From a virus: DNA of 64,000 nucleotides. Positions 18,058-61,542 of this stretch are shown piece after piece. Position numbers and translations under genes: made by a program. The stretch is taken from positions 1 through 64,000 of IMG/VR virus record IMGVR_UViG_3300025679_000001; one strand, written 5' to 3'. How positions within the stretch are numbered: position 1 is the first letter of the stretch; each line of letters starts with the position of its first letter. Below the pieces are notes generated by a model that was given only the letters and a program-made list of their open reading frames with translations, did not search any database and was not told where the DNA came from.

Positions 18058-19206
18058 ATGCTGCGATCAGGTAAGAAGAGAAAACCGGCCAAGAAAGCGG
18101 CCTCAGAGATATACAGGTCGAACTACGCGGCGTACGGCGACGAGCCGGCCTACCAGCCAGGAGAAGTTCTCACTAAGCTCAAGAAGTGGGGGTCGTTCAA
18201 CTGGTACGCGTACATGGCTACCGTCGAAGATGCTAGAGAATACGTCACCTCCTACGTCAAGAGGACTGGGATGAAGGTGAACTTCTCCGAAGTCTCCGAC
18301 CGGCAGGTTCCCATGACTGCGGCGTGGCTCTGCAGGATCGACGAGCTCGGCGCCATCATCGGCCCAGACTCTCACAAGTTCATAGCGTCAGCTATTGACG
18401 GTGCAGTGAAGAGCACCGCTAAGAACACTCTGGAGAACGAGAGGTTCACCAAGAAGACGCCGAAGGTCGAGCAGGTTCTCGACCTCTTTATCTCTAACCT
18501 CGAGGAAGTCATCGACTCCGAGACGCTCGGGATGAAACACCCAAAATCAACTCCGACGAGAACGCCTTCGAACTGGAACTATAACGTCTACGAAGCGCTC
18601 AAGCTCCAGAACTTTCCGACTTCGGCCGCGTCCTCGATCTCGAAACACTACGAGCGCCTCACTCAAGAGTTGAGGCTCGCCGTCGCTGGGTCCAACGCTC
18701 AACTGAACGAAGGCTACAGCACCTACAAGAAAGCTGAGCTCCGCGCTTGGCTCGACTGGATGGAGAAGCTCGCGGCCGACTGCGAGGCCTACTCCAAGAA
18801 CACGAAGAAGCTCAGGGCGCCGACCAAGAAGAAGTCTGCACCGTCCGCCGAGAAGAAGCTCAAGAACTTCTCTTACCTGAAGGAGAGCCTCGAGTACAAG
18901 ATCGCGTCGGTGGACCCGGCCAAGATCATCGGGGCCAAGGAGGCGTACCTGTTCAACGTCAAGTACAAGACGGTCACCGTGCTCGCCGGCGACTCACTCG
19001 ACGTGAAGGGAAAGTCGATAGTGGGCTACGACGAGGCGAGGAGCTACACCAAGAGCGCTGGCAGGAAAGCCGCCGAAGTCGCCCCGTTGCTGGGACTCGG
19101 CGGTAAGGTGTCACCTAAACCCGCGCTGGAGAAGCTGACTGGACAGTCCAGGAAAGCATCGGGCAGGGTCGATGAGAACACCGTTATTCTGAAGCTGGTA
19201 ACTTAG
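18058..19206 (+). CDS. hypothetical protein
   Basis: 382-aa ORF, an isolated plus-strand gene. Lys-rich N-terminus and central linker. Its 3' end overlaps the convergent family-A gene by 23 nt. Confidence 0.5.
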   Translation: MLRSGKKRKPAKKAASEIYRSNYAAYGDEPAYQPGEVLTKLKKWGSFNWYAYMATVEDAREYVTSYVKRTGMKVNFSEVSDRQVPMTAAWLCRIDELGAIIGPDSHKFIASAIDGAVKSTAKNTLENERFTKKTPKVEQVLDLFISNLEEVIDSETLGMKHPKSTPTRTPSNWNYNVYEALKLQNFPTSAASSISKHYERLTQELRLAVAGSNAQLNEGYSTYKKAELRAWLDWMEKLAADCEAYSKNTKKLRAPTKKKSAPSAEKKLKNFSYLKESLEYKIASVDPAKIIGAKEAYLFNVKYKTVTVLAGDSLDVKGKSIVGYDEARSYTKSAGRKAAEVAPLLGLGGKVSPKPALEKLTGQSRKASGRVDENTVILKLVT

Positions 19207-19564
19207 CGTACAACCATTTCTTGTCGAGTGGAATCTGTCCTCTGAGCACCGCGACTGCTCGATCTCTAGCTTCTTTTCCTACGCCGACACTGTTGTCAAA
19301 ACCGTAAGGGCGAAAGAGATCGTAAGCCTCATCCTTAGTAAGTCCCAGGGTTTCCATTCCGAAATTAAAGAAATTGCCTTTGGAGACATCGCCGTAAGCG
19401 ATAGCACACCACCCGGCAACGCATGCAGCAGTGTTACAATCGTTACTAACAGCAACACTAGATGCACAGTACCATTTTGGTATATTCGTCCATGCGCTCA
19501 TGTCAAACTTACCTGCACAGGTCTCGATGTAGGTCGCCAGGTCGCACATCTTCTTAGTGTCCAT
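19184..19564 (-). CDS. family-A small Cys-motif protein (paralogue 1 of 5)
   Basis: 126 aa. MDTKKMCDLATYIE...NDCNTAACVAGW...LGLTKDEAYDLFRP...RDRAVAVLRGQIPLDKKWL. The motifs are shared with 19580, 38261, 54745 and 61078. Confidence 0.6.
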   Translation of the reverse strand: MDTKKMCDLATYIETCAGKFDMSAWTNIPKWYCASSVAVSNDCNTAACVAGWCAIAYGDVSKGNFFNFGMETLGLTKDEAYDLFRPYGFDNSVGVGKEARDRAVAVLRGQIPLDKKWLYAKLPASE

Positions 19565-19579
19565 GTTTAGTCTCCGTTG

Positions 19580-19963
19580 TTATTCTGAAGCTGGTAGCTT
19601 AGCGCTGAGCCAGTTCTCGTCGAGTGGAATCTGTCCTCTGAGCACCATCACTGCACGGTCACGAGCTTCTTTTCCTAAACCGATACTCGTCTTATATCCG
19701 TCGGGGGTAAAGAGGGCGAAAGCTTCTTCCTCAGTAAGTCCCAGGGTGATCCTTCCAAACGAAAAGAACTCGAACACGCCTAATTGTTTGCCGTGAGCGA
19801 GAGCGCACCACCCGGCGACGCAGGCAGCGGTGTTGCAGTCGTTACCAACAGCCTCAATAGATTCAAGGTTGGCATCTTTGTGACTTATCCAATTGCTCAT
19901 GTCAAACTTACCGGCGCGGGTCTCGATATAGGTAGCAAGGTCGCACATCTTCTTAGTGTCCAT
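19580..19963 (-). CDS. family-A small Cys-motif protein (paralogue 2, tandem copy)
   Basis: 127 aa. The N- and C-terminal ~20 residues are almost identical to paralogue 1. GGAG RBS. Confidence 0.6.
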   Translation of the reverse strand: MDTKKMCDLATYIETRAGKFDMSNWISHKDANLESIEAVGNDCNTAACVAGWCALAHGKQLGVFEFFSFGRITLGLTEEEAFALFTPDGYKTSIGLGKEARDRAVMVLRGQIPLDENWLSAKLPASE

Positions 19964-19991
19964 GTTTAGTCTCCGTTGAAATTAGAAAAGA

Positions 19992-20093
19992 TCACAACCA
20001 GCTCCAGGTGCCTAATATGACGTGGAGGACGAACAACCCGAATCCTATTCCGGTGATCAACCCAATTACGAAACCCCAAGTGAACTTTCTCAT
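19992..20093 (-). CDS. small membrane peptide (33 aa)
   Basis: Own translation: MRKFTWGFVIGLITGIGFGLFVLHVILGTWSWL. Starts 3 nt after the rtcB stop. Below the track cutoff. Confidence 0.3.
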   Translation of the reverse strand: MRKFTWGFVIGLITGIGFGLFVLHVILGTWSWL

Positions 20094-20096
20094 GAT

Positions 20097-21275
20097 CTAA
20101 TCCTTATAAGCGTCCCTGACTTCGTTTCCCGCCATCAATACTAAGAACGGGCGGAGCTGGGTCTCGACCACAATGGTCGCCCCCTGATACGCGAGAACCT
20201 CGCTGAGCCTGCGATAGGCCATCGGAGACTCGTCGACGTCTCCTCCTACGAGGTGAACGCCCTTAGCGTGCATCCACTCGTCCATCTGCTCGCGGGTGAT
20301 CTTCGGCTCGCGCTTCCACTCGCCAGTGTTCTTGTCCTTCTTGCCCTTGGCCTCCATTCGACCCATGACTCGGCCAGAGCCGTGAACGGTGGAGTAGAGG
20401 GCTTCCTTGGACTCGGGCGTATCAACACCGTGGATGATCACGGCGTTGTCGCCCATAGAACCACCCACAAAGCCGCGCTGACCAGGCCACGCCGGCGTAG
20501 CGCCCTTGCGGACAACCCAGTACTTCTCTCCACCGTGCTCCTCGAGCCAGGCGAAATTGTGGTGATTGTGAACAGTGTCGAGGACGGACGCCCCGAGGAT
20601 CTTGCAGACGTTGGACACGACCCACTCGCGACCAGCGTAGGCGTAGCGACCCGCGAGGTGCATGGCCGCGAGATAGCGGACCCCGATCTCGGAATCAGCG
20701 TCTACGATGGTCGGAGTAGCGTCGACTCCGTCGACACCTCCGGCGAGGTTGAGGTACTTGGTGGCGGACTTGTGTCCGAGGCCTCTCGACCCGAAGTGTA
20801 CGCCGACCCAGACATAGCCGTCATCGCCCTCGAAGAGGTCGATGTAGTGGTTGCCGGAGCCGACGGTTCCGAGCTGCCCGTAGGCGAGACGCTTGAGGTC
20901 CTCAACGTCCGCGGCCTTCCATGCTTCCTCGTCGTCGAAGAGGGCAACGTCCTTGATGTCATTGCGAGAGACGGAGTAGTTGCCGCCCATCCCGAAGTCG
21001 ATCTTCTTATGAATCTTGCGGGCGATCTCCGGGATGTCCCCGATGTCCGAGAACTTGCGGGAGGTCTTGACCGCCATGTTCCCACAGGCGATGTCGAAGC
21101 CTACACCCGAGATCGAGATCTGATCTTTGTATGCCACGACCCCGCCGACCGGGTGCGAGCAATAACCCTGGTGTCCGTCCGCGCAGATAACGCCCTGCTT
21201 GACGTTGCCTACGGCGAGACAGTTCCACATCTGCTTGATGGTGTTGTCCTGGTGGTCACCGAATATCTTAAGCAT
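20097..21275 (-). CDS. rtcB: RNA-splicing ligase RtcB
   Basis: 392-aa ORF. ADGHQGY, GFDIACGN, HFGSRGLGH, HNHHNF and GSMGD are canonical RtcB motifs. Confidence 0.9.
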   Translation of the reverse strand: MLKIFGDHQDNTIKQMWNCLAVGNVKQGVICADGHQGYCSHPVGGVVAYKDQISISGVGFDIACGNMAVKTSRKFSDIGDIPEIARKIHKKIDFGMGGNYSVSRNDIKDVALFDDEEAWKAADVEDLKRLAYGQLGTVGSGNHYIDLFEGDDGYVWVGVHFGSRGLGHKSATKYLNLAGGVDGVDATPTIVDADSEIGVRYLAAMHLAGRYAYAGREWVVSNVCKILGASVLDTVHNHHNFAWLEEHGGEKYWVVRKGATPAWPGQRGFVGGSMGDNAVIIHGVDTPESKEALYSTVHGSGRVMGRMEAKGKKDKNTGEWKREPKITREQMDEWMHAKGVHLVGGDVDESPMAYRRLSEVLAYQGATIVVETQLRPFLVLMAGNEVRDAYKD

Positions 21276-21687
21276 TTAACTTCTTCTTTTCTTCCCATTG
21301 AACTAGAGGGATCCTGTCTATAGGTATTGTTTTGATCTCTCCGAGCATACCGTAGTCGATTGATGAACCAGTTCCGGGAATCAAACCGAGAAACTTCATG
21401 GCAGAGAAAACCTTCTTCCCGTCCTTGTTAGCAGCGTACTTGTGGATCTCTGTTATAGCTTGATGCGTGTTCAGATCATCGTTAAGTGCGTTGATAACCT
21501 CGTCCGGAGTCGAGATGTCGATAGAAAGCTCAGCTATCGAAAGCCACCTGCGCAGCGTCTTGGCACACTGGTTGAGCTCCGCGACAGTGAAGTCCTTTGG
21601 CTTTCGATAGTGGGTCTGAAGCATGGCGAGGCGGATCGCCATCCCGCGCATGTCCGTCTCTTCAAAAACGTAAAGGTTCTTGTGCAT
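21268..21687 (-). CDS. stand-alone cysteinyl-tRNA synthetase C-terminal fragment homologue (no catalytic domain)
   Basis: 139 aa. MAIRLAMLQTHYRKPKDFTVAELNQCAKTLRRW and INALNDDLNTHQAITEI align with E. coli CysS [32 protein letters not shown] and IEAMDDDFNTPEAYSVL. HIGH and KMSKS are absent. Overlaps the rtcB start by 8 nt. Confidence 0.6.
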   Translation of the reverse strand: MHKNLYVFEETDMRGMAIRLAMLQTHYRKPKDFTVAELNQCAKTLRRWLSIAELSIDISTPDEVINALNDDLNTHQAITEIHKYAANKDGKKVFSAMKFLGLIPGTGSSIDYGMLGEIKTIPIDRIPLVQWEEKKKLNA

Positions 21688-21947
21688 CACTTCTTTCCGT
21701 AGTCCTGGACGTACGCTTTAGCCTCGTCCTTTGTCATAACCTTGCCTTCCCAGTCCTGCCAGATCTCTCCGGTGAACTGGTCGATGCACTCGCAGAGGAT
21801 GTCCTTCTGTTCCTGGGTGTCTTGCTGAGCCATAGCGCTCTCAGAGGCGCCGAGATCAATGTACTTCTGGATGAAAGTCTGACTCACAGGAGTCAGATCG
21901 CTCCAACCCTTGATCGTGCCCCACTTCAATCTTAACTTCTCTGCCAT
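21687..21947 (-). CDS. hypothetical protein
   Basis: 86-aa ORF with an AGGAGG RBS. TGATG-coupled to the next gene. Confidence 0.5.
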   Translation of the reverse strand: MAEKLRLKWGTIKGWSDLTPVSQTFIQKYIDLGASESAMAQQDTQEQKDILCECIDQFTGEIWQDWEGKVMTKDEAKAYVQDYGKK

Positions 21948-21970
21948 GTAGTCCTCCTGGTTCAGGAGGT

Positions 21971-21999
21971 CAGTTAAACTATTCTTTAACGGATGTCAA
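21971..21999 (-). promoter_or_regulatory. possible promoter TTGACA-N17-TAACTG
   Basis: TTGACA at 21999..21994, inside the 3' end of the DUF1003 gene. Weak -10. Confidence 0.3.
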
Positions 22000-22458
22000 C
22001 TTATCATGCACTTCTGCAGTCAGCTCGGCCACTTTCTCCGTCAGGGTCTTGACTGTGTTGGTCAGATCGGTGTTCTGCTTCATGAGGTCGATCAGCAGCT
22101 TCATCTCAGTGGAGTTCGTCGCCGCGAGCTCCTCGCGGTGCTGCGCGTCAGCCATCGCGCCCGCCTTGTCCCTGTCAGCTTGCCTCGTCTGGGCAAGGAG
22201 GATGAGGGGCGCTGCGTAGGCGGCCTGGAGCGAGAACGCGAGGTTCAGGAAGATGAACGGGTAGACGTCGAACGTGACCCACCCCAACGCGTTGACCACT
22301 ATCCACGCGGCGACTACCGCCGTCTGGATGACTATGAACTTGGGAGTCCCGAAGAACCTAGCGAAGGACTCTGCCTGCTTTCCGAACCAACCGTCGCCGA
22401 AGGGTGAGTTAAGGTGTACGTGAGGAAGGTGAAAGCGAAAGAAGTGGCCTGTGCTCAT
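21979..22458 (-). CDS. DUF1003-family membrane protein
   Basis: 159-aa ORF. FGTPKFIVIQTAVVAAWIVVNAL..FDVYPFIFLNLAFSLQAAYAAPLILLAQTRQADRDK matches the DUF1003 pattern. Confidence 0.6.
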   Translation of the reverse strand: MSTGHFFRFHLPHVHLNSPFGDGWFGKQAESFARFFGTPKFIVIQTAVVAAWIVVNALGWVTFDVYPFIFLNLAFSLQAAYAAPLILLAQTRQADRDKAGAMADAQHREELAATNSTEMKLLIDLMKQNTDLTNTVKTLTEKVAELTAEVHDKLTSVKE

Positions 22459-22547
22459 TTCTTTTTCTCAAGCTTCTCGAGCTGCTTGGCTCGCTTTGCG
22501 ATCTCTTTCTTACCCTGGTGAGGTGTGTACTTGTTTGGTTTGCTCAT
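22455..22547 (-). CDS. small basic peptide (30 aa)
   Basis: Own translation: MSKPNKYTPHQGKKEIAKRAKQLEKLEKKK. GGAGAA RBS. ATGA-coupled to the DUF1003 gene. Confidence 0.35.
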   Translation of the reverse strand: MSKPNKYTPHQGKKEIAKRAKQLEKLEKKK

Positions 22548-22562
22548 CTTGTTTCTCCATGA

Positions 22563-22808
22563 TTAACTTTTAGATCTTGAACTATCCACCTGCCGCAGAA
22601 AGCCGTCATAACGTTTCGGAGTAAGTTCCAGTGCCCCCTCTGGGTATATCTGTACGCTGCCGACCTCTTTTTCGGACTCGACGCAGTAGCCAAAGTGCGT
22701 CAGGCTCGAACTGTAAAAGCCAACGATTCTTCCCGTCCAAGAAGATCCTTTAATCTTGTTGACTCGCTGGCCGAGCCGGAACTTTCCGTTGTGCACGATC
22801 TCGCTCAC
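22563..22808 (-). CDS. dfrB: type B (R67/DfrB-like) dihydrofolate reductase
   Basis: 81 aa from GTG 22808 (GTGA-coupled). FRLGQRVNKIKGSSWTGRIVGFYSSSLTHFGYCVESEKEVGSVQIYPEGALE versus R67 [52 protein letters not shown]. The catalytic VQIYP is conserved. Confidence 0.75.
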   Translation of the reverse strand: MSEIVHNGKFRLGQRVNKIKGSSWTGRIVGFYSSSLTHFGYCVESEKEVGSVQIYPEGALELTPKRYDGFLRQVDSSRSKS

Positions 22809-23599: not shown

Positions 23600-23616
23600 G
23601 ATTAACCTAAAAAAGT

Positions 23617-25320: not shown

Positions 25321-25328
25321 GGCGTCTC

Positions 25329-26669: not shown

Positions 26670-26682
26670 TAGAGTGGTGTCC

Positions 26683-31107: not shown

Positions 31108-31328
31108 TAGTTCTTGTCCGCCTTTATCCACACTGCGCTCGCCGGGGTCCACGTTCCGTCTATCTTTACGCGGCACCCTCCGCGCCAGCTCCACTCAGTC
31201 TCCCTAGGCTCCCAGGTGATTGCGCAGTTCGGTTTATTAGTGAGCATGACAACACTGTAAACAAACCCACCAGCGAAAATGGCTACTGCCAATATGATGG
31301 CAGCAAAGATAAAAAGTTCGTCTCGCAT
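31107..31328 (-). CDS. small membrane protein
   Basis: 73-aa ORF with the TM helix LFIFAAIILAVAIFAGGFVYSVVML. Confidence 0.45.
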   Translation of the reverse strand: MRDELFIFAAIILAVAIFAGGFVYSVVMLTNKPNCAITWEPRETEWSWRGGCRVKIDGTWTPASAVWIKADKN

Positions 31329-31397
31329 AAAACCTCCATGAAGTTAGTGGGAAGGGGCCGTGATGGTCCCTTCCCGTCGGTGCTGTTGGTATTAAAA

Positions 31398-31577
31398 CTA
31401 TAGGAAGTACTTCCCGTTCTCGAACTTCACGGCAAGACCCTTCTGGCGCAGGCGGTAGATTGCTGACGCTGGGTCGGTGACGCCGATCTTGGTGGACCTG
31501 ATCTGGGCGGCGCTCAATTGCTTGCCGTTCTGCAGGTTGCTGATCAAGCGTTGTGTGTTCTTGGAGATTGTCCTCAT
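31398..31577 (-). CDS. small winged-HTH-like DNA-binding protein (59 aa)
   Basis: Own translation: MRTISKNTQRLISNLQNGKQLSAAQIRSTKIGVTDPASAIYRLRQKGLAVKFENGKYFL. Preferred over the Arg/His-rich 129-aa track ORF 31237..31626 in another frame. Confidence 0.45.
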   Translation of the reverse strand: MRTISKNTQRLISNLQNGKQLSAAQIRSTKIGVTDPASAIYRLRQKGLAVKFENGKYFL

Positions 31578-31626
31578 TATAATACTCTTTCTTGTTAGCC
31601 CTGGCCATCCAGGAGCATAGTGTCAT

Positions 31627-32213: not shown

Positions 32214-32221
32214 TATTTATA
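32214..32221 (-). promoter_or_regulatory. T4-type late promoter box TATAAATA
   Basis: Exact TATAAATA on the coding strand in the intergenic region, 22 nt upstream of ATG 32192. Embedded in the CCATG...CATGG palindrome. Confidence 0.4.
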
Positions 32222-37621: not shown

Positions 37622-37808
37622 CGTTCTTCTCTAGCAATCTGCGGCGCTTAATGATATATTCAGTAAGACCGCCAATGAACAAGCCGCAGAAGAAACTACC
37701 GACGGCGCTCGGTTCGAACGTGGCGATCTTCTCGCCCTCCTGGTTCAAGACGTGCCAGCCGTCCTCAGCCTGATCGAGATATACTGTCCTCTTGGGTTTT
37801 TCGCTCAT
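37611..37808 (-). CDS. small membrane-anchored protein
   Basis: 65-aa ORF with a GGAGGTG RBS. C-terminal TM helix GSFFCGLFIGGLTEYII. Confidence 0.5.
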   Translation of the reverse strand: MSEKPKRTVYLDQAEDGWHVLNQEGEKIATFEPSAVGSFFCGLFIGGLTEYIIKRRRLLEKNDAL

Positions 37809-38280
37809 CTTTCACCTCCATCAGTTGCTTAGCTAGTCTCGAGCACTCGCGCACCACGTACGGGACGTCCTTGTAGATCCCGAACTCTAGGATCCCACGC
37901 GGTATGCCAATCTTAGCGTCCGTCGCCCTCATCCCGGGAGACATGTCGTTCAGGTGAGCGCAGTCGAACCCGAGCCACCAGACTAGGTCGTCCTCGCCCT
38001 CCTCGACGAGGTGACAGATCCCATGCTCGTCTTCAGCACAGGTGTCCGCGAACGTTAGGCCGCCGTGAACAGTGACGTCGCAGTCGTTGTAGCCCTTCTT
38101 AAAGAACGGGTGATCTTTGGACACGCCGACGTAACCGCACAGGCTGCCGAGGGTGTTTCTCACTATGAGGCACGGCATACCCGTCGCGTTGTCGACGTAC
38201 TGGATCTTGTCAGGCTCGGCCTGCCATGGGCCCGGGCCCCACGAAGACTTGTCGTGCGTCTTATACTCTATTCTCTTCAT
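37765..38280 (-). CDS. conserved-looking hypothetical protein
   Basis: 171-aa ORF with the motifs GPGPWQAEPD, LCGYVGV, VHGGLTF and LGFDCAHLND. Confidence 0.5.
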   Translation of the reverse strand: MKRIEYKTHDKSSWGPGPWQAEPDKIQYVDNATGMPCLIVRNTLGSLCGYVGVSKDHPFFKKGYNDCDVTVHGGLTFADTCAEDEHGICHLVEEGEDDLVWWLGFDCAHLNDMSPGMRATDAKIGIPRGILEFGIYKDVPYVVRECSRLAKQLMEVKDERKTQEDSISRSG

Positions 38281-38641
38281 TCTGGACTCTCGGTTGAGGG
38301 TTACGCAACCAGTCTATCGTCAACGCAATCTCTCCGCGAAGGACTCCCATCATCCTGGTGCGCTGAGTTTCTTGGTCTAACTCGTCATGAATTCCGATAG
38401 GCGAAAAGAGGTAATTGGCTCTTTTTTCGGTCAGGCTGAGCGATCTTGTAGCATACAGTACAACACTGTCAATGTCGGGCGCGTCATAACGTTCTTTAAT
38501 AACCAACCACCCTGCAATGCAGCACGCAGTACCGCACTCTCCGCTTGAGCTAACAGTTATCTGGTGTGGTTGAAAGGTTGACATGTCTACGAGCTTGTCC
38601 TCGATATAGGTAGCCAACTCGCACATCTTCTTGGTGTCCAT
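38261..38641 (-). CDS. family-A small Cys-motif protein (paralogue 3)
   Basis: 126 aa. MDTKKMCELATYIE...ECGTACCIAGW...LSLTEKRANYLFSP...RTRMMGVLRGEIALTIDWL. Confidence 0.6.
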   Translation of the reverse strand: MDTKKMCELATYIEDKLVDMSTFQPHQITVSSSGECGTACCIAGWLVIKERYDAPDIDSVVLYATRSLSLTEKRANYLFSPIGIHDELDQETQRTRMMGVLRGEIALTIDWLRNPQPRVQNEENRV

Positions 38642-38867: not shown

Positions 38868-38896
38868 GATCTATACCGCATCCCTGTCGGTGTCAA
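38868..38896 (-). promoter_or_regulatory. sigma70-type promoter TTGACA-N17-TAGATC
   Basis: TTGACA at 38896..38891. Followed by a ~220-nt leader before ATG 38641. Confidence 0.45.
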
Positions 38897-38899: not shown

Positions 38900-39220
38900 C
38901 TATTTTTCGTAATAGTGGCGGTAGGCCAGGATCACTGCCCTTTGCTGCTTGACGTAGCGCAGGACGTCAGCTTGGTTCGACAAGTTTACCTTGAAGCCAT
39001 CCACCGTCAAGCCGACGAGCACTCCACCGTGGGACGCCAACACTTGAGCTACGTTCTTCTCGTTGATGATCACCCAGTCGATCTTTTCTTGGGTCACCGG
39101 CGCTGGATCTTCTAGGTTAAGAGGAGGGTGTGTCTCTACCTGCGCGACTCGAATGGTGACTGGGGAGGTGCACCCAGCCAGCGCGAACGCCGTTAGAGCG
39201 ACTATAGCAAGTCTGGACAT
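38900..39220 (-). CDS. lipoprotein (candidate o-spanin)
   Basis: 106-aa ORF with the lipobox LTAFALAGC. The start is embedded 19 nt inside the preceding TM/coiled-coil gene. Confidence 0.4.
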   Translation of the reverse strand: MSRLAIVALTAFALAGCTSPVTIRVAQVETHPPLNLEDPAPVTQEKIDWVIINEKNVAQVLASHGGVLVGLTVDGFKVNLSNQADVLRYVKQQRAVILAYRHYYEK

Positions 39221-41645: not shown

Positions 41646-41849
41646 TTACTTATCTCCCTTGGCGACCATCTGCTCGATATACTCCGAGCTCTTCAGGTCT
41701 CTCGATCTAGTGATCGTGTTTGTTTCTGCATTATTTATATTCGAAGGATCGGTCCCGATCTCCTCGCTCAGACTTACTCGAGACGCTGGAAGAGGCGTGT
41801 CGTACACTACGACCCCTCCGACTACGAGTCTTCTTGCTATCATCGGCAC
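41646..41849 (-). CDS. hypothetical protein
   Basis: 67-aa ORF. Confidence 0.4.
   Translation of the reverse strand: MPMIARRLVVGGVVVYDTPLPASRVSLSEEIGTDPSNINNAETNTITRSRDLKSSEYIEQMVAKGDK
41732..41739 (-). promoter_or_regulatory. T4-type late promoter box TATAAATA
   Basis: Exact TATAAATA on the coding strand, about 88 nt upstream of ATG 41644 (putative structural gene). Lies inside the 67-aa ORF. Confidence 0.35.
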
Positions 41850-42294: not shown

Positions 42295-42302
42295 TATTTA
42301 TA
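42295..42302 (-). promoter_or_regulatory. TATAAATA box (late promoter candidate, unusually close to ATG)
   Basis: Exact TATAAATA in the 14-nt spacer, only 4 nt upstream of ATG 42290. Confidence 0.25.
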
Positions 42303-48670: not shown

Positions 48671-48749
48671 TGGTCCGCCGCCTGGGATTCGAACCCAGAC
48701 TAACTGCCGTTTTGAGTGGCGAGGCCTCTGCCGGTTGGGCTAGCGGCGG
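48671..48749 (-). tRNA. atypical tRNA-like gene (anticodon CAA if the loop is read canonically)
   Basis: Minus strand has a 7-bp acceptor CCGCCGC/GCGGCGG, the T arm CTGGG-TTCGAAT-CCCAG, A73 and an encoded CCA. The D stem has 3 bp. The anticodon stem is imperfect, giving either a 9-nt loop ACTCAAAAC or a 7-nt loop closed by A.C. The variable loop is short. Confidence 0.5.
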
Positions 48750-49742: not shown

Positions 49743-49819
49743 TGGCGTCCTAGAAGGGACTCGAACCCATGACCTCAGGTTTAGGAAACCTGCGCTCTAT
49801 CCAGCTGAGCTACTAAGAC
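49743..49819 (-). tRNA. tRNA-Arg (anticodon CCT)
   Basis: Minus strand: GTCTTAG-TA-GCTC-AGCTGGATA-GAGC-G-CAGGT-TTCCTAA-ACCTG-AGGTC-ATGGG-TTCGAGT-CCCTT-CTAGGAC-GCCA. This is a canonical cloverleaf with an encoded CCA. Confidence 0.85.
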
Positions 49820-52752: not shown

Positions 52753-52781
52753 CTACTACAATCCTACCCACTAGTTGTCAA
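52753..52781 (-). promoter_or_regulatory. possible promoter TTGACA-N17-TAGTAG
   Basis: TTGACA at 52781..52776. The -10 overlaps the RBS of the AAA gene, so function is doubtful. Confidence 0.25.
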
Positions 52782-53261: not shown

Positions 53262-53272
53262 TTTCTCTCTCC

Positions 53273-54682
53273 TTATGCTACGGCTCTATACTCGACCATC
53301 GAGCAACCCATAGCTGCTGCTGCTCTCTCAGCTTCTGTCTGGTGCGAGGTGATCTTCATCTCGCTCAGGACTCGGTCAGCGGCCCTCATCAGGTCCTCGT
53401 CACCGACGCCGGACGGTTTTTTAGCACCGGCCTTGATGTCGCGCTTGAGCGCGGTAGTCTTGGCGATCTCAACGATGTTGGCCGCCGAAGCTCCAGACAG
53501 GACGTCCCTGGCCGTGACGTAGGTCGTCTGACCGTCGTCGAGGAGCACTTCGAGGACCCTGCGGTTCTCGTCGTAGAGATGACGGGCGACCTTCTTACCA
53601 CAGGTGTTGGACTTGGTGCCGGCGAGGTTGATGTCGATGATCTTCTCGAACGTCGACTCGTCTGGTCGTCCGACGGTGATCTTACGGTCGATGCGCCCGT
53701 CGCGGACGACCGCCGGGTCGAGGTGGTGAGGCATGTTGGTGGCCAGTATCACCACGGCGCTGGAAGCCTGGAGGCCGTCCATCTCGGTCAGGAACGTCGG
53801 GACTATCGTCTGGTCCATGCCGGAGGTGTGGTTGGCACCCCTTCGACCGAGGACAGACTCAGCCTCGTCGATGAAGATGATGGCCTGGACGCCTGTCTTG
53901 ACGTGGTGTTCCCTGGCGTCGGAGAACAGGTTGCGGATGTTGCGCTCGGACTCACCAACGTACTTGTTCAGGATCTCTGGACCCTTGACGTAGATGAACT
54001 TGCCATTTCCTCCGGAGAGCTTGGCGACCTCGGTAGCCGCAGCTTTCCCGATCATGGTCTTGCCGCAGCCTGGAGGACCCTCGAGGAGGATTCCCTTCGG
54101 GACCTTGTAACCGTACTCAGTGTACAGGTGGGCGTGCTCGGTCTGTCCCACTATGAACTCGAGGAACTGTTCCTTGACGTCGTCGAGGCCTCCGATAGAC
54201 TCCCACTCTACGGGAACGAAGTCCTCCTCAGCTACGGTCGTGCCCTTCGACATTATGTCGGTGATTATCGTGCCTGATGCCACTAAGACCTGGTCGCCGA
54301 CTTCGGTGTCGAGGTCGAAGTCGTAGACGATCTTGGTGACAGAGTCAAGCTCTACTAAGCGCTCAGTCTTAGACAATACCTTGATGACGCGAGCAGCCAC
54401 GGTGACGAGCCCGTTACCCTTGAGCGTAGCGACGACGGCTCCCTGAACTACGGCGACCCTGGCGCCGAGCTTCAGCTTCTTGATAGTCTGTCCGCAGTGG
54501 GTTACGCCACCTCCGTCGGTCACCACTACGTACTTTTCAGTCGAGATTCCCTTGATAGTCGTTTCTGTAGAGAAGCCGATGATAAATCCCTGAACGGCGG
54601 GTGCTTCGGCGAGCTTCTGAGCAAAATCTTGAAACTCCTCGAGAGTTTCTTCGATCGACTGTTCTGTGTTCTTAGATGGCAT
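53273..54682 (-). CDS. classical-clade AAA+ unfoldase with OB-like N-domain (ARC/PAN/CDC48-like)
   Basis: 469-aa ORF with a GGAG RBS. GILLEGPPGCGKT, IIFIDEAESV, ILATNMPHHLDPAVVRDGRIDR. The N-terminal region is beta-rich (VVVTDGGGV...GARVAVVQGAVVA). Confidence 0.75.
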   Translation of the reverse strand: MPSKNTEQSIEETLEEFQDFAQKLAEAPAVQGFIIGFSTETTIKGISTEKYVVVTDGGGVTHCGQTIKKLKLGARVAVVQGAVVATLKGNGLVTVAARVIKVLSKTERLVELDSVTKIVYDFDLDTEVGDQVLVASGTIITDIMSKGTTVAEEDFVPVEWESIGGLDDVKEQFLEFIVGQTEHAHLYTEYGYKVPKGILLEGPPGCGKTMIGKAAATEVAKLSGGNGKFIYVKGPEILNKYVGESERNIRNLFSDAREHHVKTGVQAIIFIDEAESVLGRRGANHTSGMDQTIVPTFLTEMDGLQASSAVVILATNMPHHLDPAVVRDGRIDRKITVGRPDESTFEKIIDINLAGTKSNTCGKKVARHLYDENRRVLEVLLDDGQTTYVTARDVLSGASAANIVEIAKTTALKRDIKAGAKKPSGVGDEDLMRAADRVLSEMKITSHQTEAERAAAAMGCSMVEYRAVA

Positions 54683-54711
54683 GGTTTCTCCTTCGTTTTC
54701 TGATGCTAGGA

Positions 54712-54740
54712 TGTATATCTCAACGCTAAGTGAGTGTCAA
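54712..54740 (-). promoter_or_regulatory. sigma70-type promoter TTGACA-N17-TATACA
   Basis: TTGACA at 54740..54735, in the spacer between paralogue A4 and the AAA+ gene. Confidence 0.55.
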
Positions 54741-54744
54741 CTGG

Positions 54745-55164
54745 CTATTTGCGAGGCTGAGGATTCAACAACCAGTCCTTGGTGAGCGCTATCTCACCGC
54801 GAAGGACTCCGATCATCCTCTCCTGCTGGTCTTTCCTACTGACATAGGAGTAGGGCCAGCCGTCTGGGACGAAGAGGCTTAATCTTTCTTCATCTGTGAG
54901 TTCGAGGTACGTCTGAGCGTTACGTGCTACTGTTGACCCAAGAAAGTAATCATTGGAATCAGAATCGCTCTCTAATGCTTTTTTAAGAACTGCCCACCCT
55001 GCGATGCAGCACGCCGTATTACAGTCGTTGACGGCCTCCTGAGCAGTCTTCTTAGTAATCTTATTAGTATAGTGATTAGGAGAAACATACGCCATCATCT
55101 TCGTTTGACTAGAGTCAAGCTTCTCGATGAAGGCCGCCAGGTCGCACATCTTCTTGTAGTTCAT
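54745..55164 (-). CDS. family-A small Cys-motif protein (paralogue 4)
   Basis: 139 aa. MNYKKMCDLAAFIE...NDCNTACCIAGW...LELTDEERLSLFVP...QERMIGVLRGEIALTKDWL. Confidence 0.6.
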   Translation of the reverse strand: MNYKKMCDLAAFIEKLDSSQTKMMAYVSPNHYTNKITKKTAQEAVNDCNTACCIAGWAVLKKALESDSDSNDYFLGSTVARNAQTYLELTDEERLSLFVPDGWPYSYVSRKDQQERMIGVLRGEIALTKDWLLNPQPRK

Positions 55165-56203: not shown

Positions 56204-56820
56204 TGGAACACGCTGACGGCGATGCGATGGTAGACGCTCTTCAGTCTGTTGAAGATGATAGTGCCGATCTCGACGACGACGTCGCGGCAGAACGTCCACA
56301 CTAAGGACCACGGCCACAAGAACATCCACGAGATGATTCGGGCCTTGAAGTCCCCGACGTACGGTGTAAAGTAAGATATGTTCAGGTCGTCGTAGCTAAC
56401 GAGACCCCTGATGATGTTGTTATTTTTTTCCAAGAGCGTTTTGTCCTTCGACCTGACGCGCTCGAGCTCGTTTACCCTGTCTCTTACAAATTGATTTACA
56501 TATTTGCCAAAGAGGCCGACTGGTGGATAGAGGACGCTAGTGTCATTCTTGTTGTCTCGCACCCACTGACGAGCTTTCCTCAGGTGCAGCCACCACTTGA
56601 TCACGGACCACACCGCTCCTGCTATAACGTACAGGACTACATAGAGTGGAGCAGCCTGCACGAAGTTCCAGACCTGGGCCCAACCATTAAGGTACACGTA
56701 CCCACACGTCACCGCCGCAATGAACACGACAAGCGGTGGCCAGTACTCGTACTCCATCAAAGAGATGATGATGAGACTAAACACTGCTACGATAGAAATG
56801 AGTAAAGAAAGGTTGTTCAT
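56200..56820 (-). CDS. multi-pass membrane protein
   Basis: 206-aa ORF with at least 3 TM segments. Confidence 0.5.
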   Translation of the reverse strand: MNNLSLLISIVAVFSLIIISLMEYEYWPPLVVFIAAVTCGYVYLNGWAQVWNFVQAAPLYVVLYVIAGAVWSVIKWWLHLRKARQWVRDNKNDTSVLYPPVGLFGKYVNQFVRDRVNELERVRSKDKTLLEKNNNIIRGLVSYDDLNISYFTPYVGDFKARIISWMFLWPWSLVWTFCRDVVVEIGTIIFNRLKSVYHRIAVSVFQ

Positions 56821-57026
56821 CTAAAGAATCCTCCATTGCATAGAAGTAAAAACAGAATGGCATGCGTCGCGAAGGCGCTCCACGCGTTGTAGTTTCCAGC
56901 TTTAGGTTCCCCGTGAAGCATGATGTAGCCTATAAAATTGAGCGAGAGCCAGACTACTAAGATCCACTGGGGAAAGCCCCAGTCGCTAACGTTGATGCTA
57001 GAATTGATCACTGTTATGGGCGTCAT
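56817..57026 (-). CDS. small membrane protein
   Basis: 69-aa ORF with 2 TM segments. Confidence 0.45.
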   Translation of the reverse strand: MTPITVINSSINVSDWGFPQWILVVWLSLNFIGYIMLHGEPKAGNYNAWSAFATHAILFLLLCNGGFFR

Positions 57027-59059
57027 TTTTCGTCCTCCGTCACGACCAGCTCGGTCGTCTTCTTGTCGTATACCACAGAAAGGTGCAGTATGTCACCAGG
57101 ATTCTTCGCGAGGGCCCTGTCAGCTATCGAGGACTCGAGAGTGGACCTCAGCCTGCCGGGGAGACCTCGCGCGCCTGTGCGCGGGTCGTAGTTCTTCTCG
57201 CAGAACTTCTTGACCTCACCGTCGTGCACCGTGAAGTTGATGTTCTCCACCGAGTACGCCGATATGATCAGGTTCAGTTCCCTAGTGACGATCTTCTCGA
57301 TCACCTCGACGCTGAGAGCGCTGAACTGGACGATGTCCCTCCTGCCGCCGAACCTGTTGAGGAACTCTGGGCGGTAGGTAGAGTCGAGCTCGGCCATGGT
57401 GCGCTCCTGGGCCTGCGCCACGGTGAGCTTCTTGTCGAGGTAGTGAGTCTGCCCGATGTTGGTGGTGCAGAGCACGTAGCAGTCCTCGAAAGAGACCACT
57501 CGGCCGACGTTGTCAGAGAGCCTGCCGTCGCCGAGGATCTGGAGGAAGATGTTGAAGACGTCAGGGTGAGCCTTCTCGATCTCGTCGAGGAGGAGGACGC
57601 ACACTGGCTGGCGCCTGATGCCGTTCGTCAAGATGCCGCCGGCGTCGAAGCCCTCGTAGCCGGGAGGGGCGCCAATGAGCTTCGCCACGGCATGCTTCTC
57701 CATGTACTCGGACATGTCGAGCCTGAACAGAGACTTCTCGTCGCCGAAGAGGTTGACCGCGAGAGCCTTCGCCATCTCGGTCTTGCCGACTCCGGACGGT
57801 CCGGTAAAGATGCAGGCGCCGAGGGGCTTCCCTCGGGTGCGACGACCGATGCGGGAAGTCTTGACCATCCCGACCACGTGCTTCACCGCTTCGTCCTGCC
57901 CGAATATCCTGGACAGCATGCTCGGCTCGAGGTTGCGGAGCTTCTCGCGCTCGTCCTCGTTGAGCTTGTCAGCCGGGATGCCGGAGATCCTGGAGAATTC
58001 TGAGGTGACGTCACCGCCGGACAGCTTCAGGTTCTTGTTGACCTTCTCGACGAAGTCGTCGTGCTGCTTCCTAGTGTCGGACAGCGACTCCTCGATCAGC
58101 TCGAGCTTCTTCTTGATCTCAGCTTTAGCAGGGTTGTCGACGCCGCCCTTTCCCGCCAGCTTGGCGAAGGCGCCTATCGTCTTAGACTTGGCCCCGGCGG
58201 CCGCGTCGTCGAGGCGCTCGTCCTCGGTGTTCAGCTCGTCCATAGCCTTGATGTAGTTGTCCTCGGTGACGCGGAGTTTGGACGTCCAGCCGTCCAGCGC
58301 AGTCTTGTCTGCCGGAGAGATCTTCTCGTGTGAGTCCATCTTATAAGTGGCCAGCGACCGGTCGAGAAGGTTGACGCTTCGCGACGGCTGCGCCCTGGTG
58401 CTCGTCGACCTGTACTTGTTCGTCAGGGCTATAGACTGCTCAACGGCCTCGTCGGTGACGGCGATCTTGTGGTACGCCGCGAGCTGGTCGGCCGAGTCCC
58501 TCACTATGGAGCGGAGAGGACCGTCGTTCGGCTCGGCGATCTCCATCACGGTGAACAGTTCCTGCATGTCGGAGTGCGACTTGATGACTGAGTCGAAGTG
58601 GTTGTCCTTGACCTCGAAGATCACCTGGGTCTTTCCAGTCTTGATACAGCTCATGAGCGAGTTCACGAAGTGCTCGTGCCCGTTCTTGCAGGCGGTGAGA
58701 AAGTCGTTGTAGTCCTCGACGATGAGGATAGACCCGGAGGTCTGCTCGAGAGCGGTGATGATCTTCGACCACTCTGAGTCGACGGTGTTGCCGTCGCTCG
58801 ACGAGAAGAGGCCGTCGGTGTCGAGCCAGAAGATCCTCTTGGAGGAGATGTCGAACGGCGCACCGTCAGTCTTCTTCCAGGCCCAGAGGCCGAGACAGAT
58901 GGTGGAGCACCCGACGCCTCCCGGCCCGGTGATGACGATAGAGTTCGCGGCGCGCCTGGTCAGGATCGACGCCATCTCCTTGAGCTCAGCGTCCCTGCCG
59001 ACGCAGCGAAAGTTAGGAGTGTCGCGGAGCTTGTCCGTACCCTTGATCATGTAGTTCAT
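57023..59059 (-). CDS. ClpB/ClpA-like two-module AAA+ chaperone with degenerate NBD1
   Basis: 678-aa ORF. NBD2 is intact: FTGPSGVGKTEMAKALA, LLLDEIEKAHPDVFNIFLQILGDGRLSD, GARGL. NBD1 Walker A reads GPGGVGCST (Lys to Cys). A coiled-coil middle region is present and there is no Clp N-domain. Confidence 0.8.
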   Translation of the reverse strand: MNYMIKGTDKLRDTPNFRCVGRDAELKEMASILTRRAANSIVITGPGGVGCSTICLGLWAWKKTDGAPFDISSKRIFWLDTDGLFSSSDGNTVDSEWSKIITALEQTSGSILIVEDYNDFLTACKNGHEHFVNSLMSCIKTGKTQVIFEVKDNHFDSVIKSHSDMQELFTVMEIAEPNDGPLRSIVRDSADQLAAYHKIAVTDEAVEQSIALTNKYRSTSTRAQPSRSVNLLDRSLATYKMDSHEKISPADKTALDGWTSKLRVTEDNYIKAMDELNTEDERLDDAAAGAKSKTIGAFAKLAGKGGVDNPAKAEIKKKLELIEESLSDTRKQHDDFVEKVNKNLKLSGGDVTSEFSRISGIPADKLNEDEREKLRNLEPSMLSRIFGQDEAVKHVVGMVKTSRIGRRTRGKPLGACIFTGPSGVGKTEMAKALAVNLFGDEKSLFRLDMSEYMEKHAVAKLIGAPPGYEGFDAGGILTNGIRRQPVCVLLLDEIEKAHPDVFNIFLQILGDGRLSDNVGRVVSFEDCYVLCTTNIGQTHYLDKKLTVAQAQERTMAELDSTYRPEFLNRFGGRRDIVQFSALSVEVIEKIVTRELNLIISAYSVENINFTVHDGEVKKFCEKNYDPRTGARGLPGRLRSTLESSIADRALAKNPGDILHLSVVYDKKTTELVVTEDEK

Positions 59060-59145
59060 GGTGCTACCGCGACGAGAGGTATACGATGCCTAAGAATATG
59101 ATCCCCGGTATGGCCAGCACGGCGACGTCCGGCCACGTAGTGGCT

Positions 59146-59394
59146 TCAGCTAACATTAACATTAACATCAATTTCCTCCTTGAGCTGGCAGTTTGGGTAG
59201 GCCTCCAGCGGTTGCCTTCTAGCTACGATATTATCATCTTTGACGCGCTTGTCAAGGTGTGCCTTGATGTCGTCTAACACACGGCCACACTCGAACCCTT
59301 TCGGACCGCAGAGGAGATAGGCACAGCACTCGTGTCCCATGCCTATCCCGCAGCGCTTCACTTCTTCTTTGGTGAGGAGGAGTTCCTTGCTCAT
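59146..59394 (-). CDS. Cys-rich small protein
   Basis: 82-aa ORF. CGIGMGHECCAYLLCGPKGFECG...YPNC. Confidence 0.45.
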   Translation of the reverse strand: MSKELLLTKEEVKRCGIGMGHECCAYLLCGPKGFECGRVLDDIKAHLDKRVKDDNIVARRQPLEAYPNCQLKEEIDVNVNVS

Positions 59395-61076
59395 CAGCGT
59401 GTACCGATGTTACCGAACGGGCTCTTCGTCTTCGCCGCGGCTTTCTTGTCAGCGACAGTCGTCGTTGCTGGCTTTCCGATCGTGTCGGAGTTCACGGCGT
59501 ACGCCTTGCGAGTAGAATTGCGCACGGCCTCGGCTTCCTTCGCGATCTCGTCCATCTTGACCCGCATCGACTCGATGCCCTCCTTGGTGATCTCGGTGGC
59601 TGAGGTCACGACCTGGCCGTAGCCCTGAAGGTCGTCGATAACCTTGGACAGCGCGTCGGCCTGCTCGTTGACGCCCATGGCCTGACGGATGGCTTCCTTC
59701 TGCGTCACAGCGTTGGTCGACTGTCGCATCTGGTCCATAGTGGTTCTGGCCATCGCTGACGACTCGCCGAGAGCGGCCATGGACACCGCCTGGAGGACGG
59801 TGCTGAGCCTGTCAGCAACGCCGGCCACTCCCTGCGAGTGCAGGATGCGGGCCGTGTTCATGTTGTCGGTGTTGTTGTCTCGCATGCCCTTAACGCGGAT
59901 CGCCTGGGTGGTGAGGTCGGCGTAGGTCGACATCGTGTCGACGGTGCTCGCGTCGACGGCCTTGATGTGCTGGTCGATCGAGAGCTTCTCGGACTCGCGA
60001 GTCATCTTGGCGATGGCGTCCTCGTCGGCCGGCCCTTCGGCCACCTTCTTGAGGAGGTCGCGGTTGTTGGCGTCGGCGGTCTTGAGCCCTTCCTGCATGA
60101 TGGCGTAGACGCCGGTCATGGAGTCGTTGGCGTCGGCGAGGGACTCGATCTGGCCGTTCATCTGGGTCAGGTGGTCGCGGATGCTGCCGATGCGGGACTT
60201 AGAGGTCTGCACGAAGTTGAGGGCCGTGGCGACTAAGTTCTGCTGGCGCTCCTTGTGCTCCTCGGACGAGATGTCCAAGAGCTCGCGGAGCTTCGCCTTC
60301 TGCTCGGCGAACTCGGGGTCATCGTCCTCGGGGGGCTTGGCCGAAGCTTCGAGAGTGACGGCCTCGCCGTTGAGCTTCCCGAGCTGCTCGTTGTCCTGGG
60401 CGATCGCTGCCTCCTCCCGGGCGATGTCCTCCTTGACGCTCTGCGGCAGTCCGCCGAACCCGAACAGGCCGCGCTTCGTCTTGAGGGCGGCGATTTGTTT
60501 CTGCTTCTCGGAGATGCTGTTGCTGATGTCGCCGACCTTGCCGTCGATCTCAGCCAAGTTCTTGCGACGCTCGTCCTCTTTCTGCCTGTCCTCGACGATA
60601 GCTTTGAAGGCGTCGAGCGTCATGCCGGACGTGCGGAGCTTGTAGACCGCGTCGATGATGTCGGTGAGAGGGCCCATGCCGTTCTCGAAGTCGATGAGGC
60701 CCTGGTTCATCTGGGAGTAGGTGTCCTTCAGCTCGGAGAAGGTGCCGGAGTCCGTGAGCTGGATGATCTCGGTCGCCATCGTCTCGCGCACGTTCTGCAG
60801 GTACTCCTTGAAGAGCTCCTGCTGGGCTACGTGCTCGCGGGACTCCTCCTTAGTACCAGTGAACGTCATCAGGGAGGCGAACTGCTTAGCTTTCTCCTTG
60901 GCGGAGAGCTTCTCGTTGAAGAGCACCTGGTAGAAGGGGTTGCTCTCGATGTCGGCGAAGCGGGGGTCGGCCACTACTGTGGACGTCTGTGTCTTCGCCT
61001 TTCCTCGCGCCTTCTGCACGTCGGCGAGGATCTCGTCGGCGGTAGTCCTTAACTTAGTCTTAGCTGATGTAGCCAT
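59394..61076 (-). CDS. long alpha-helical/coiled-coil protein
   Basis: 560-aa ORF, rich in A/E/K/Q/D/T, with no TM segment. The tentative TelA-like impression is unverified. Confidence 0.5.
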   Translation of the reverse strand: MATSAKTKLRTTADEILADVQKARGKAKTQTSTVVADPRFADIESNPFYQVLFNEKLSAKEKAKQFASLMTFTGTKEESREHVAQQELFKEYLQNVRETMATEIIQLTDSGTFSELKDTYSQMNQGLIDFENGMGPLTDIIDAVYKLRTSGMTLDAFKAIVEDRQKEDERRKNLAEIDGKVGDISNSISEKQKQIAALKTKRGLFGFGGLPQSVKEDIAREEAAIAQDNEQLGKLNGEAVTLEASAKPPEDDDPEFAEQKAKLRELLDISSEEHKERQQNLVATALNFVQTSKSRIGSIRDHLTQMNGQIESLADANDSMTGVYAIMQEGLKTADANNRDLLKKVAEGPADEDAIAKMTRESEKLSIDQHIKAVDASTVDTMSTYADLTTQAIRVKGMRDNNTDNMNTARILHSQGVAGVADRLSTVLQAVSMAALGESSAMARTTMDQMRQSTNAVTQKEAIRQAMGVNEQADALSKVIDDLQGYGQVVTSATEITKEGIESMRVKMDEIAKEAEAVRNSTRKAYAVNSDTIGKPATTTVADKKAAAKTKSPFGNIGTR

Positions 61077-61077
61077 G

Positions 61078-61542
61078 TTACTCTCCTTCGTTTTCAGTTA
61101 TTCTCGGTCGAGGGTTGTGCAGCCAACCGTAGTTAAGTAAGATCTCACCTCGCAGGACTCCCATCATCCTCTCGCGCTGGATTTTTTTGTCCATCGGTCT
61201 GGACCATCCGTCCGGGGTGAACAGCATGCTGCTTTCAAGGCCGGTAAGCTCCAACTCCTTTGCTGCAAAATCTCTGATATTATTAGGTAGATCGAAGACG
61301 TCGTCTGTAGTATCACCAGCAAAACCTTTTCCGTGCTTCAGCGCTGTCCATCCAGCTATGCAACAAGCAGTCCCGCAGTCATTAACTATAGCGTCCATTT
61401 CTTCCCGTGACCTATATCTCTTTGCTTGCGCCACTAAGACGTCGTGTGGAAATTTATTCTTGTCCTTGGGAAGGAACGTAGCCATGTCCACTTCCTTGTC
61501 GGCGATGAAGGTCGCCAGGTCGCACATCTTCTTATAGTTCAT
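61078..61542 (-). CDS. family-A small Cys-motif protein (paralogue 5)
   Basis: 154 aa. MNYKKMCDLATFIA...NDCGTACCIAGW...LELTGLESSMLFTP...RERMMGVLRGEILLNYGWL. Confidence 0.6.
   Translation of the reverse strand: MNYKKMCDLATFIADKEVDMATFLPKDKNKFPHDVLVAQAKRYRSREEMDAIVNDCGTACCIAGWTALKHGKGFAGDTTDDVFDLPNNIRDFAAKELELTGLESSMLFTPDGWSRPMDKKIQRERMMGVLRGEILLNYGWLHNPRPRITENEGE

Follow-up and report, generated by a model that had tools for sequence, protein, structure and literature searches.

Sequence comparison identifies small cysteine-motif proteins of a predicted T4-like jumbo phage as a seven-copy, lineage-specific expansion within PHROG 889

The nearest described relatives of the small cysteine-motif proteins studied here are those of PHROG 889 (with PHROGs 30739 and 13468), which have the same Cys core and the same small stand-alone architecture, and both PHROG 889 and PHROG 30739 are labelled 'unknown function'. 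Members occur in cultured phages, including Mycobacterium phage Omega (gp104) and other cluster J phages, Gordonia phages Yvonnetastic and Forza, Streptomyces phage Dagobah, Xanthomonas phage BUDD, Synechococcus phages B3 and B23, and Agrobacterium phage JP1, all annotated 'hypothetical protein'. A second family, DUF6197 (PF19698), is similarly small (100-140 aa), mostly phage or actinobacterial and function-unknown, with a similar order of features (an N-terminal 'L..AADLIE' helix, a Cys that precedes a small-residue-rich helix (C-A-x-G-A), a Trp motif, and a helix at the C-terminus), but has one conserved Cys instead of a C-x4-C pair. No useful literature was found on the motif, phrog_889 or DUF6197. 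More loosely, the proteins resemble the small accessory or counter-defence paralog families of large phages, whose genes are small, probably early and non-essential-looking and come in several diverged copies, tandem or dispersed, with variable loops on a fixed scaffold; they differ from that class in having no sequence or structural match to a characterised member, no positive selection, and a near-invariant core. Here, we examined five such open reading frames (ORFs; copies 1-5) in positions 1 to 64,000 of the IMG/VR virus record IMGVR_UViG_3300025679_000001 (this whole 64,000-nt stretch being the window), together with two further paralogs encoded outside it. What is new is the lineage-specific seven-copy expansion of divergent members, the family as such being catalogued in PHROGs.

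An earlier note, made from the letters of this DNA, had listed five family members, and all five ORFs are present exactly where it placed them, on the minus strand and in one family; the count is right for the window but the genome total is seven. The paralogs and the leaders of the tandem pair are as follows.

19184-19564, minus strand: copy 1, 126 aa, downstream of its tandem partner copy 2, core DCNTAACVAGW
19565-19579, minus strand: 15-nt leader of copy 1, CAACGGAGACTAAAC, which contains the ribosome-binding site
19580-19963, minus strand: copy 2, 127 aa, upstream of copy 1 in the tandem pair
19964-19978, minus strand: second 15-nt leader CAACGGAGACTAAAC, before copy 2
38261-38641, minus strand: copy 3, 126 aa, its 3' end overlapping the start of a phrog_2164 gene by 20 nt
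54745-55164, minus strand: copy 4, 139 aa, its start overlapping the stop of an upstream 243-aa gene (ATGA)
61078-61542, minus strand: copy 5, 154 aa, opening a transcription unit and separated by 1 nt from the 560-aa gene behind it
Outside the window, opposite strand: paralog P0006, 156 aa, tandem partner of P0008
Outside the window, opposite strand: paralog P0008, 134 aa, tandem partner of P0006

A family profile hidden Markov model (HMM) built from copies 1-5 and run against the six-frame translation of the window recovered copies 1 to 5 at expectation values (E) of 7e-61, 5e-62, 1e-51, 1e-58, and 6e-59, respectively, and nothing else better than E=2, so the window holds exactly five copies, far beyond chance. 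Their full-length alignment has 33 invariant columns, with 37-68% identity to copy 1 (68% amino-acid identity between copies 1 and 2); M22, L73, L75, L83, F84 and the C-terminal VLRG..I.L...WL are invariant across the five, and C(N/G)TA(A/C)C(I/V)AGW is present in all seven paralogs. Several of the motifs first proposed needed adjustment: the Cys pair is conserved, but it is spaced as C-x4-C instead of CxxxC (copies 1 and 2 have Ala in place of the middle Cys); L.LT..E...LF.P holds in general, but its E is not invariant (R in copy 3); and the C-terminal motif is present, but in a different register, the correct form being R(M/A)xxVLRG(E/Q)IxLxxxWL. The proposed hypervariable segment between the N-terminal helix and the Cys core stands, at 15-45 aa among the paralogs, and alignment and core and loop lengths bear out the description of a multi-copy family with variable loops on a fixed scaffold. 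Every window copy has a GGAG-type ribosome-binding site 7-10 nt 5' of its ATG, and the leaders of copies 1 and 2, read from the sequence, are identical, consistent with a tandem duplication that included the translation signal.

BLAST searches with each of the seven paralogs returned the other six and a metagenomic orphan (P0007) as best matches; by these mutual best matches the seven form a lineage-specific clade, pointing to expansion within the lineage and not to repeated acquisition. The window proteins lie on a 348,740-bp metagenomic contig that also encodes a T4-type portal (Portal_T4), sheath, tube, gp13, gp15, neck, and large terminase. The terminase is 42-44% identical to its nearest GenBank phages (T4-like cyanophages, Pelagibacter phage Mosig, and Stenotrophomonas phage DLP_6), 8 kb of the window searched against GenBank by megablast gave no match, and tblastn with copy 5 found no close phage genome in GenBank. 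Because the terminase is distant and the megablast search empty, these comparisons place the source as a deep-branching jumbo phage of the T4 superfamily. Its type of transfer-messenger RNA (tmRNA) suggests an alphaproteobacterial host: a permuted (two-piece) alphaproteobacterial-type tmRNA lies at 14877-15292 (minus strand) of the window (Rfam alpha_tmRNA 101.5 bits, E 1.4e-26; tmRNA_permuted 94.9 bits). The window also carries tRNA-Leu(CAA) at 48671-48749 and tRNA-Arg(CCU) at 49743-49819 (both minus strand), the latter also found by Rfam.

The family as delimited here has the motif C-G-T-x-x-C-I-A-G-W (alignments A2, A3, and A5). Copies 1 to 5 match phrog_889 at E 1.5e-5, 1.6e-8, 7.8e-5, 6.6e-6, and 1.7e-6, respectively, while all 140 of the 140 canonical relatives in alignment A5 match it (best E 7.9e-19) and 112 of the 140 also match phrog_30739; judged by these profile matches, the window copies are divergent members of PHROG 889, a catalogued but uncharacterised family. 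The divergence of the window clade is apparent in matches that cover mainly the core, an extra Cys at position 7 in 6 of 7 copies, a PxG that replaces the canonical WP motif, the VLRG(E/Q)IxLxxxWL C-terminal helix, and the presence of seven copies in one genome.

Scans of copies 1-5 against Pfam, NCBIfam, and PADLOC gave no match (Pfam and PADLOC at E<=1; PADLOC covers defence proteins, not anti-defence proteins, and so has no bearing on an anti-defence role). Among 227 further members searched against Pfam (140 of them at E<=5) no family recurred, 87 further members had no match in NCBIfam, and PDB sequence-profile searches with alignments A1 and A5 gave no match. The earlier note had not recognised the family, and we agree insofar as Pfam, NCBIfam, PADLOC, and PDB sequences all lack it and only PHROGs has it; homology to a housekeeping phage family, which that note had named as speaking against its reading, was not found. 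DUF6197 membership was considered and rejected: neither the copies (E<=1) nor the 227 relatives match it in Pfam, and profile-profile comparison (hhalign), shallow and then deep (140 vs 90 sequences), gave probabilities of 1.2%, 1.8%, and, for the deep test, 0.8%. DUF6197 is also absent from the window.

A profile search of 1.84 billion cluster representatives (clustered at 50% identity) yielded 21,010 proteins at E<=1e-3, 6,149 of which reach E<=1e-10; almost all have a length of 120-185 aa. None of 1,661 matches in an annotated collection has another Pfam domain or an informative name, and the only multidomain members seen are two self-fusions (P0123 and P0177) that keep both Cys pairs. Plasmid carriage is limited to one record, and a scan of 185,579 species genomes, limited to the motif, gave nine loci only. 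The family is very large, mostly phage-borne, and usually stand-alone.

Conservation was counted over 295 sampled members, in the numbering of the canonical member P0027. The near-universal residues are one Met and the fixed-length C-G-T-x-x-C-I-A-G-W segment: Cys44 and Gly47 are kept in all 295, Cys39 in 294, Thr41 in 291, Trp48, Leu92, and Phe93 in 288 each, and Met22 in 282, while position 43, the middle Cys of the earlier note, is variable across the family. The ten-residue core is constant in length (standard deviation 0). The loop before it, from Met22 to Cys39, is where members of the family chiefly vary in length (3-45 residues) and where the paralogs are least alike, and the loops of the seven paralogs, at 15-45 residues, span almost the whole family range. 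Two AlphaFold models were made.

Copy 4: 74-sequence alignment, predicted local distance difference test (pLDDT) 80.3, predicted template modelling score (pTM) 0.75
Canonical member P0027: 140-sequence alignment, pLDDT 95.5, pTM 0.89

Only the variable loop of the copy 4 model is of low confidence, P0027 is modelled with seven helices and a tiny two-stranded sheet, and the N-terminal helix and the amphipathic C-terminal helix are predicted at pLDDT >90 in both. Foldseek against the PDB found no neighbour (best E 1.4 for copy 4 and 2.7 for P0027, template modelling score <=0.3), and a BFVD search returned uncharacterised phage proteins only (E >=0.18). As modelled, the protein is a compact, mainly alpha-helical domain of ~130 aa without a PDB neighbour, in which the Cys motif appears to run from a short strand into a helix N-terminus and the Met appears to sit on the segment that pairs with this strand.

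The near-invariant Cys/Thr/Gly/Trp/Met core looks like conserved chemistry rather than an arms-race binding surface, and because its conservation is extreme we favour shared chemistry over a purely adaptive surface. The best explanation, to which we give a probability of about 0.5, is that the paralogs share a thiol-based site, differ in specificity loops, and are expressed early as accessory proteins in host takeover. The Cys pair, Thr, Met, and helix N-terminus would form a putative thiol-based functional site, either redox-active or metal- or cofactor-binding, which may be completed across a dimer and could then bring four Cys together in one site; that two domains act jointly is suggested by the natural self-fusions and by how often copies are in tandem. 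Each paralog would retain the site but have its own adjacent loops, and so direct one common chemistry or ligand at a different partner, and the sigma-70-like promoters and accessory neighbourhood described below would place expression early in infection, during host takeover.

A similar site could also serve the phage itself, as a redox or metal helper (a dithiol reductant or a metallochaperone, e.g., with a Cys2-Met soft-metal site) for phage metabolism or proteostasis, with the paralogs serving different client proteins. The invariant C-x4-C with a Thr at -3 from the second Cys at a helix N-terminus recalls the (T/S)xxC of peroxiredoxins, where the same Thr/Cys geometry activates the thiolate (a resemblance of mechanism, by analogy only), and the invariant Met and Trp beside the motif would suit such a role. 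In the C-x4-C-R motif of low-molecular-weight protein tyrosine phosphatases (LMW-PTP), too, a second Cys lies five residues upstream (i/i+5, as Cys12/Cys17). Compared with peroxiredoxins, LMW-PTP, and thioredoxins, however, the fold is predicted to be mainly alpha-helical and not alpha/beta, no Arg follows the second Cys, and there is no CxxC. Identity with peroxiredoxin or LMW-PTP was rejected on motif spacing, the missing Arg, and fold, with no Foldseek or HMM match, and thioredoxin-fold oxidoreductases (Trx, Grx, NrdH) were rejected on the C-x4-C spacing, the alpha-helical models, and the lack of a Pfam or Foldseek match. The helper role is further weakened by the lack of any fold or sequence match to a thioredoxin, glutaredoxin, peroxiredoxin, or metallochaperone and by the seven diverged copies, which are hard to justify for a housekeeping role, and we regard it as distinctly unlikely.

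Nei-Gojobori estimates, with a sliding window on copies 1/2, indicate how the paralogs diverged. All pairs except copies 1/2 have synonymous divergence (dS) of 1.4 to infinity at 34-46% amino-acid identity, and since synonymous sites are saturated the expansion is old. Copies 1 and 2 (76% nucleotide identity) have dS 0.48, nonsynonymous divergence (dN) 0.25, and a dN/dS ratio (ω) of 0.52; along this pair, the proportion of nonsynonymous differences (pN) is ~0 in the N-terminal helix and Cys core, where that of synonymous differences (pS) is ~0.5, and in the variable segments pN roughly matches pS without exceeding it. By these estimates, purifying selection on the scaffold of this pair is strong and its loops evolve about neutrally. 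Copies 1 and 2 have identical termini, but gene conversion is ruled out as their source by the pS of ~0.5 there. The earlier note had called the family 'rapidly diversifying' and proposed a dN/dS check along the alignment; that wording does not hold for old paralogs whose sole measurable pair has ω=0.52 with loop pN ~ pS, and the check detected no positive selection (copies 1/2).

These estimates bear directly on the view put forward in that note, namely that the proteins are an anti-defence or host-interaction arsenal in which each copy, with its variable loops on the fixed scaffold, would act against a different host factor or defence system. The several copies, with loops of 15-45 aa that differ in both length and sequence, suit this idea, as do the roughly neutral loops of the copy 1/2 pair, and the idea would be compatible with the thiol-site explanation if the site is the effector. 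Against it stand the lack of positive selection (ω is 0.52 overall and ~1 at most in the loops, and the other pairs are anciently diverged) and a core that is near-invariant in the 295 members sampled from a family of >21,000 clusters and very different hosts, which is atypical of target-specific inhibitors; the net charge is not uniformly acidic, so the proteins are not general DNA mimics. PDB structure and sequence searches showed no similarity to characterised anti-defence proteins (Acr, Ocr/ArdA, Tad, Gad, Acb, and others), these being general libraries with none dedicated to anti-defence. That the carriers are overwhelmingly phages, and that unrelated phages have several copies, speaks for an arsenal; the absence from plasmids apart from the one record counts against it. 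On the whole, we consider an arsenal in this sense possible but somewhat improbable.

Base composition sets the paralogs apart from their surroundings. The G+C content at third codon positions (GC3) of all seven is 0.48-0.61, compared with a window median of 0.70 and 0.74-0.88 in neighbouring genes, and is thus low (Mann-Whitney p = 0.001) although the paralogs are ancient; other low-GC3 ORFs in the window lie at 16108-16683 (0.40) and 31237-31626 (0.42). The P0006/P0008 pair is found between the sheath and terminase genes, next to NUMOD3 ORFs (10001-10878 of the locus L001). In the same locus, 8859-10878 is an opposite-strand insertion with a NUMOD3 ORF, small ORFs, and these two paralogs, each unit having a TTTACA-N17 promoter-like motif; the one that belongs to the P0006/P0008 pair reads TTTACA-N17-TATGGA. 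Such an insertion between structural genes beside NUMOD3 ORFs is in keeping with an arsenal. Together with the low GC3 of all seven copies, the position of two copies beside NUMOD3 ORFs in the structural module could also be read as a sign of selfish or decaying cargo, i.e., moron-like or mobile-cassette genes spread by duplication or homing-endonuclease transfer. The ORFs are intact with ribosome-binding sites, however, the scaffold is under strong purifying selection, all motif residues are kept in every copy, and the copies are mutually closest relatives and so reflect lineage duplication and not repeated import; we find cargo of this kind very improbable.

For the thiol-site explanation, the timing of expression is drawn from promoter-like motifs. 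TT[GT]ACA-N15-18-TATA occurs six times on the minus strand of the window and never on the plus strand, with 0.42 expected, and the three promoter positions proposed earlier (38868, 54712, and 61563) all match it, confirming sigma-70-like motifs beside copies 3, 4, and 5. These motifs and other expression-related features of the window are listed below.

38870-38896, minus strand: sigma-70-like motif TTGACA-N15-TATAGA, ~230 nt upstream of copy 3
54712-54740, minus strand: sigma-70-like motif TTGACA-N17-TATACA, between copy 4 and an AAA ATPase gene
61563-61591, minus strand: sigma-70-like motif TTTACA-N17-TATAGG, 20 nt upstream of the copy 5 ATG
61707-61750, minus strand: terminator-like interrupted GC hairpin (GGGCCGGG...GCGAG/CTCGC...CCCGGCC), then TTTTTT, read from the sequence
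13856-13863, 32214-32221, 41732-41739, and 42295-42302, all minus strand: T4-type late boxes TATAAATA

The copy 3 motif directly follows an Rz-like spanin gene, and RNA folding of the 230-nt copy 3 leader was not exceptional (z = -0.48). The motif at 54712-54740 serves the downstream gene and not copy 4, which is the last gene before it. At copy 5, the motif is followed by a GAGGAG ribosome-binding site, and the hairpin at 61707-61750, which a simple hairpin scan (loop rule 3-8 nt) did not list, would end the upstream unit, so that copy 5 starts a new one. The late box TATAAATA was found four times against 0.17 expected, always on the minus strand, and despite this enrichment in the window no T4-type late promoter precedes any window copy. 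A further sigma-70-like match, TTGACA-N16-TATACC, lies inside the copy 1 coding sequence (19479-19506, minus strand) and is probably a chance match. Sigma-70-like, probably early, promoters would fit an arsenal as well as the thiol-site explanation.

The window neighbours of the copies are mixed accessory genes, including matches to phrog_2164, phrog_2971, and phrog_11903; those adjoining copies 1-3 are listed here.

20097-21275, minus strand: RtcB RNA ligase (PF01139, E 1e-55), immediately upstream of the copy 2/copy 1 pair
About 19970-20070, minus strand: 33-codon hydrophobic ORF MRKFTWGFVIGLITGIGFGLFVLHVILGTWSWL, between RtcB and copy 2
37765-38280, minus strand: phrog_2164 protein, labelled unknown function, with a weak MazG-like PHROG match
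38900-39220, minus strand: Rz-like spanin (phrog_812, E 1e-13), upstream of copy 3

RtcB in other phages repairs defence-cleaved tRNA, and an accessory-gene location that includes RtcB is a point for an arsenal. A specific link to RNA repair proved too loose: RtcB lies beside copies 1/2, and in two other loci an RNA ligase is 1.7 kb (L010) or 8 kb (L035) upstream. Copies 4 and 5 are interspersed in a proteostasis-like block (53273-54682, 57023-59059, and 62738-63751, all minus strand) that contains a classical AAA ATPase (PF00004), a ClpB-like double-AAA protein (AAA_2, ClpB_D2-small; phrog_4871 'ATP-dependent protease', E 5e-168), and a weak DnaJ-domain match. That these two copies share a block with an AAA ATPase, a ClpB-like ATPase, and a weakly DnaJ-like gene, and that AAA ATPases also adjoin family members in two other loci (L004 and L034), speaks for a helper in proteostasis, but the link is weak, the L004 and L034 ATPases being orthologues and the window ATPase sharing only a generic core with them. 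The AAA ATPase was accordingly rejected as a partner: the L004/L034 orthologues come from related phages, and the non-orthologous window ATPase has only the generic AAA core in common with them (27% identity over 200 aa).

Elsewhere, too, the family often has several copies per locus.

L003: 4 copies, spanning 13 kb
L004: 3 copies, spanning 4 kb
L034: 2 copies
L010: 7 copies, spanning 6 kb

The last of these (L010 5968-11637, on the 216-kb contig_3 of a Dehalococcoidia metagenome-assembled genome) is a same-strand array in which seven family members are interleaved with six DUF6197 (PF19698) genes; its core variant is CGTPACIAGH, with the Trp replaced by His, and an RNA_ligase (PF09414) gene and a sigma-70 region-4 gene lie upstream of the array. 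In other phages, the family occurs in long same-strand runs of small unannotated genes, with ERF, YqaJ, DnaB, SprT, WhiB, and RNA ligase genes nearby (early or replication-type contexts), and neighbours in cellular genomes were uninformative. Across 36 loci, no conserved partner gene and no known defence or anti-defence gene accompanies the family, and this lack of co-location and of a partner is a further point against an arsenal.

Several points weigh against a shared thiol-based site with early accessory expression. No homology ties the motif to any chemistry, and a classical enzyme is not indicated, since among polar residues Cys and Thr alone are conserved and His, Asp, and Glu are not; the role of the invariant positions could be purely structural. 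That Met22 clusters in space with the Cys pair is inferred from a secondary-structure string, and the dimer, for which the evidence is two fusion proteins and tandem gene pairs, is one that may form. Early expression is suggested by consensus motifs, and copies 1, 2, and 4 each lack a dedicated promoter. A more far-reaching version would be that this unrecognised phage fold carries an invariant site with a new thiol or metal activity against the host, and that paralog arrays, possibly acting as heterodimers, use their loops to redirect it to different targets as a counter-defence or takeover toolkit; we put this forward as speculative and consider it unlikely.

With ~21,000 clusters and no curated domain model, literature, or PDB neighbour, the family is among the larger blanks in phage accessory genes. 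Several old, diverged copies are repeatedly kept per genome, which argues that each does something distinct, and the presence of the family in cultured, tractable phages (Mycobacterium phage Omega, cluster J, and Gordonia phages) makes its function directly testable. Small phage gene families without known function are common; what distinguishes this one is its size, its invariant Cys site, the lack of a PDB neighbour, and the recurrent upkeep of multiple copies. If the Cys motif is structural, on a binding scaffold, this would be an ordinary function-unknown family; if instead the Cys site is a new activity against host factors, the family would be a new class of phage effector.

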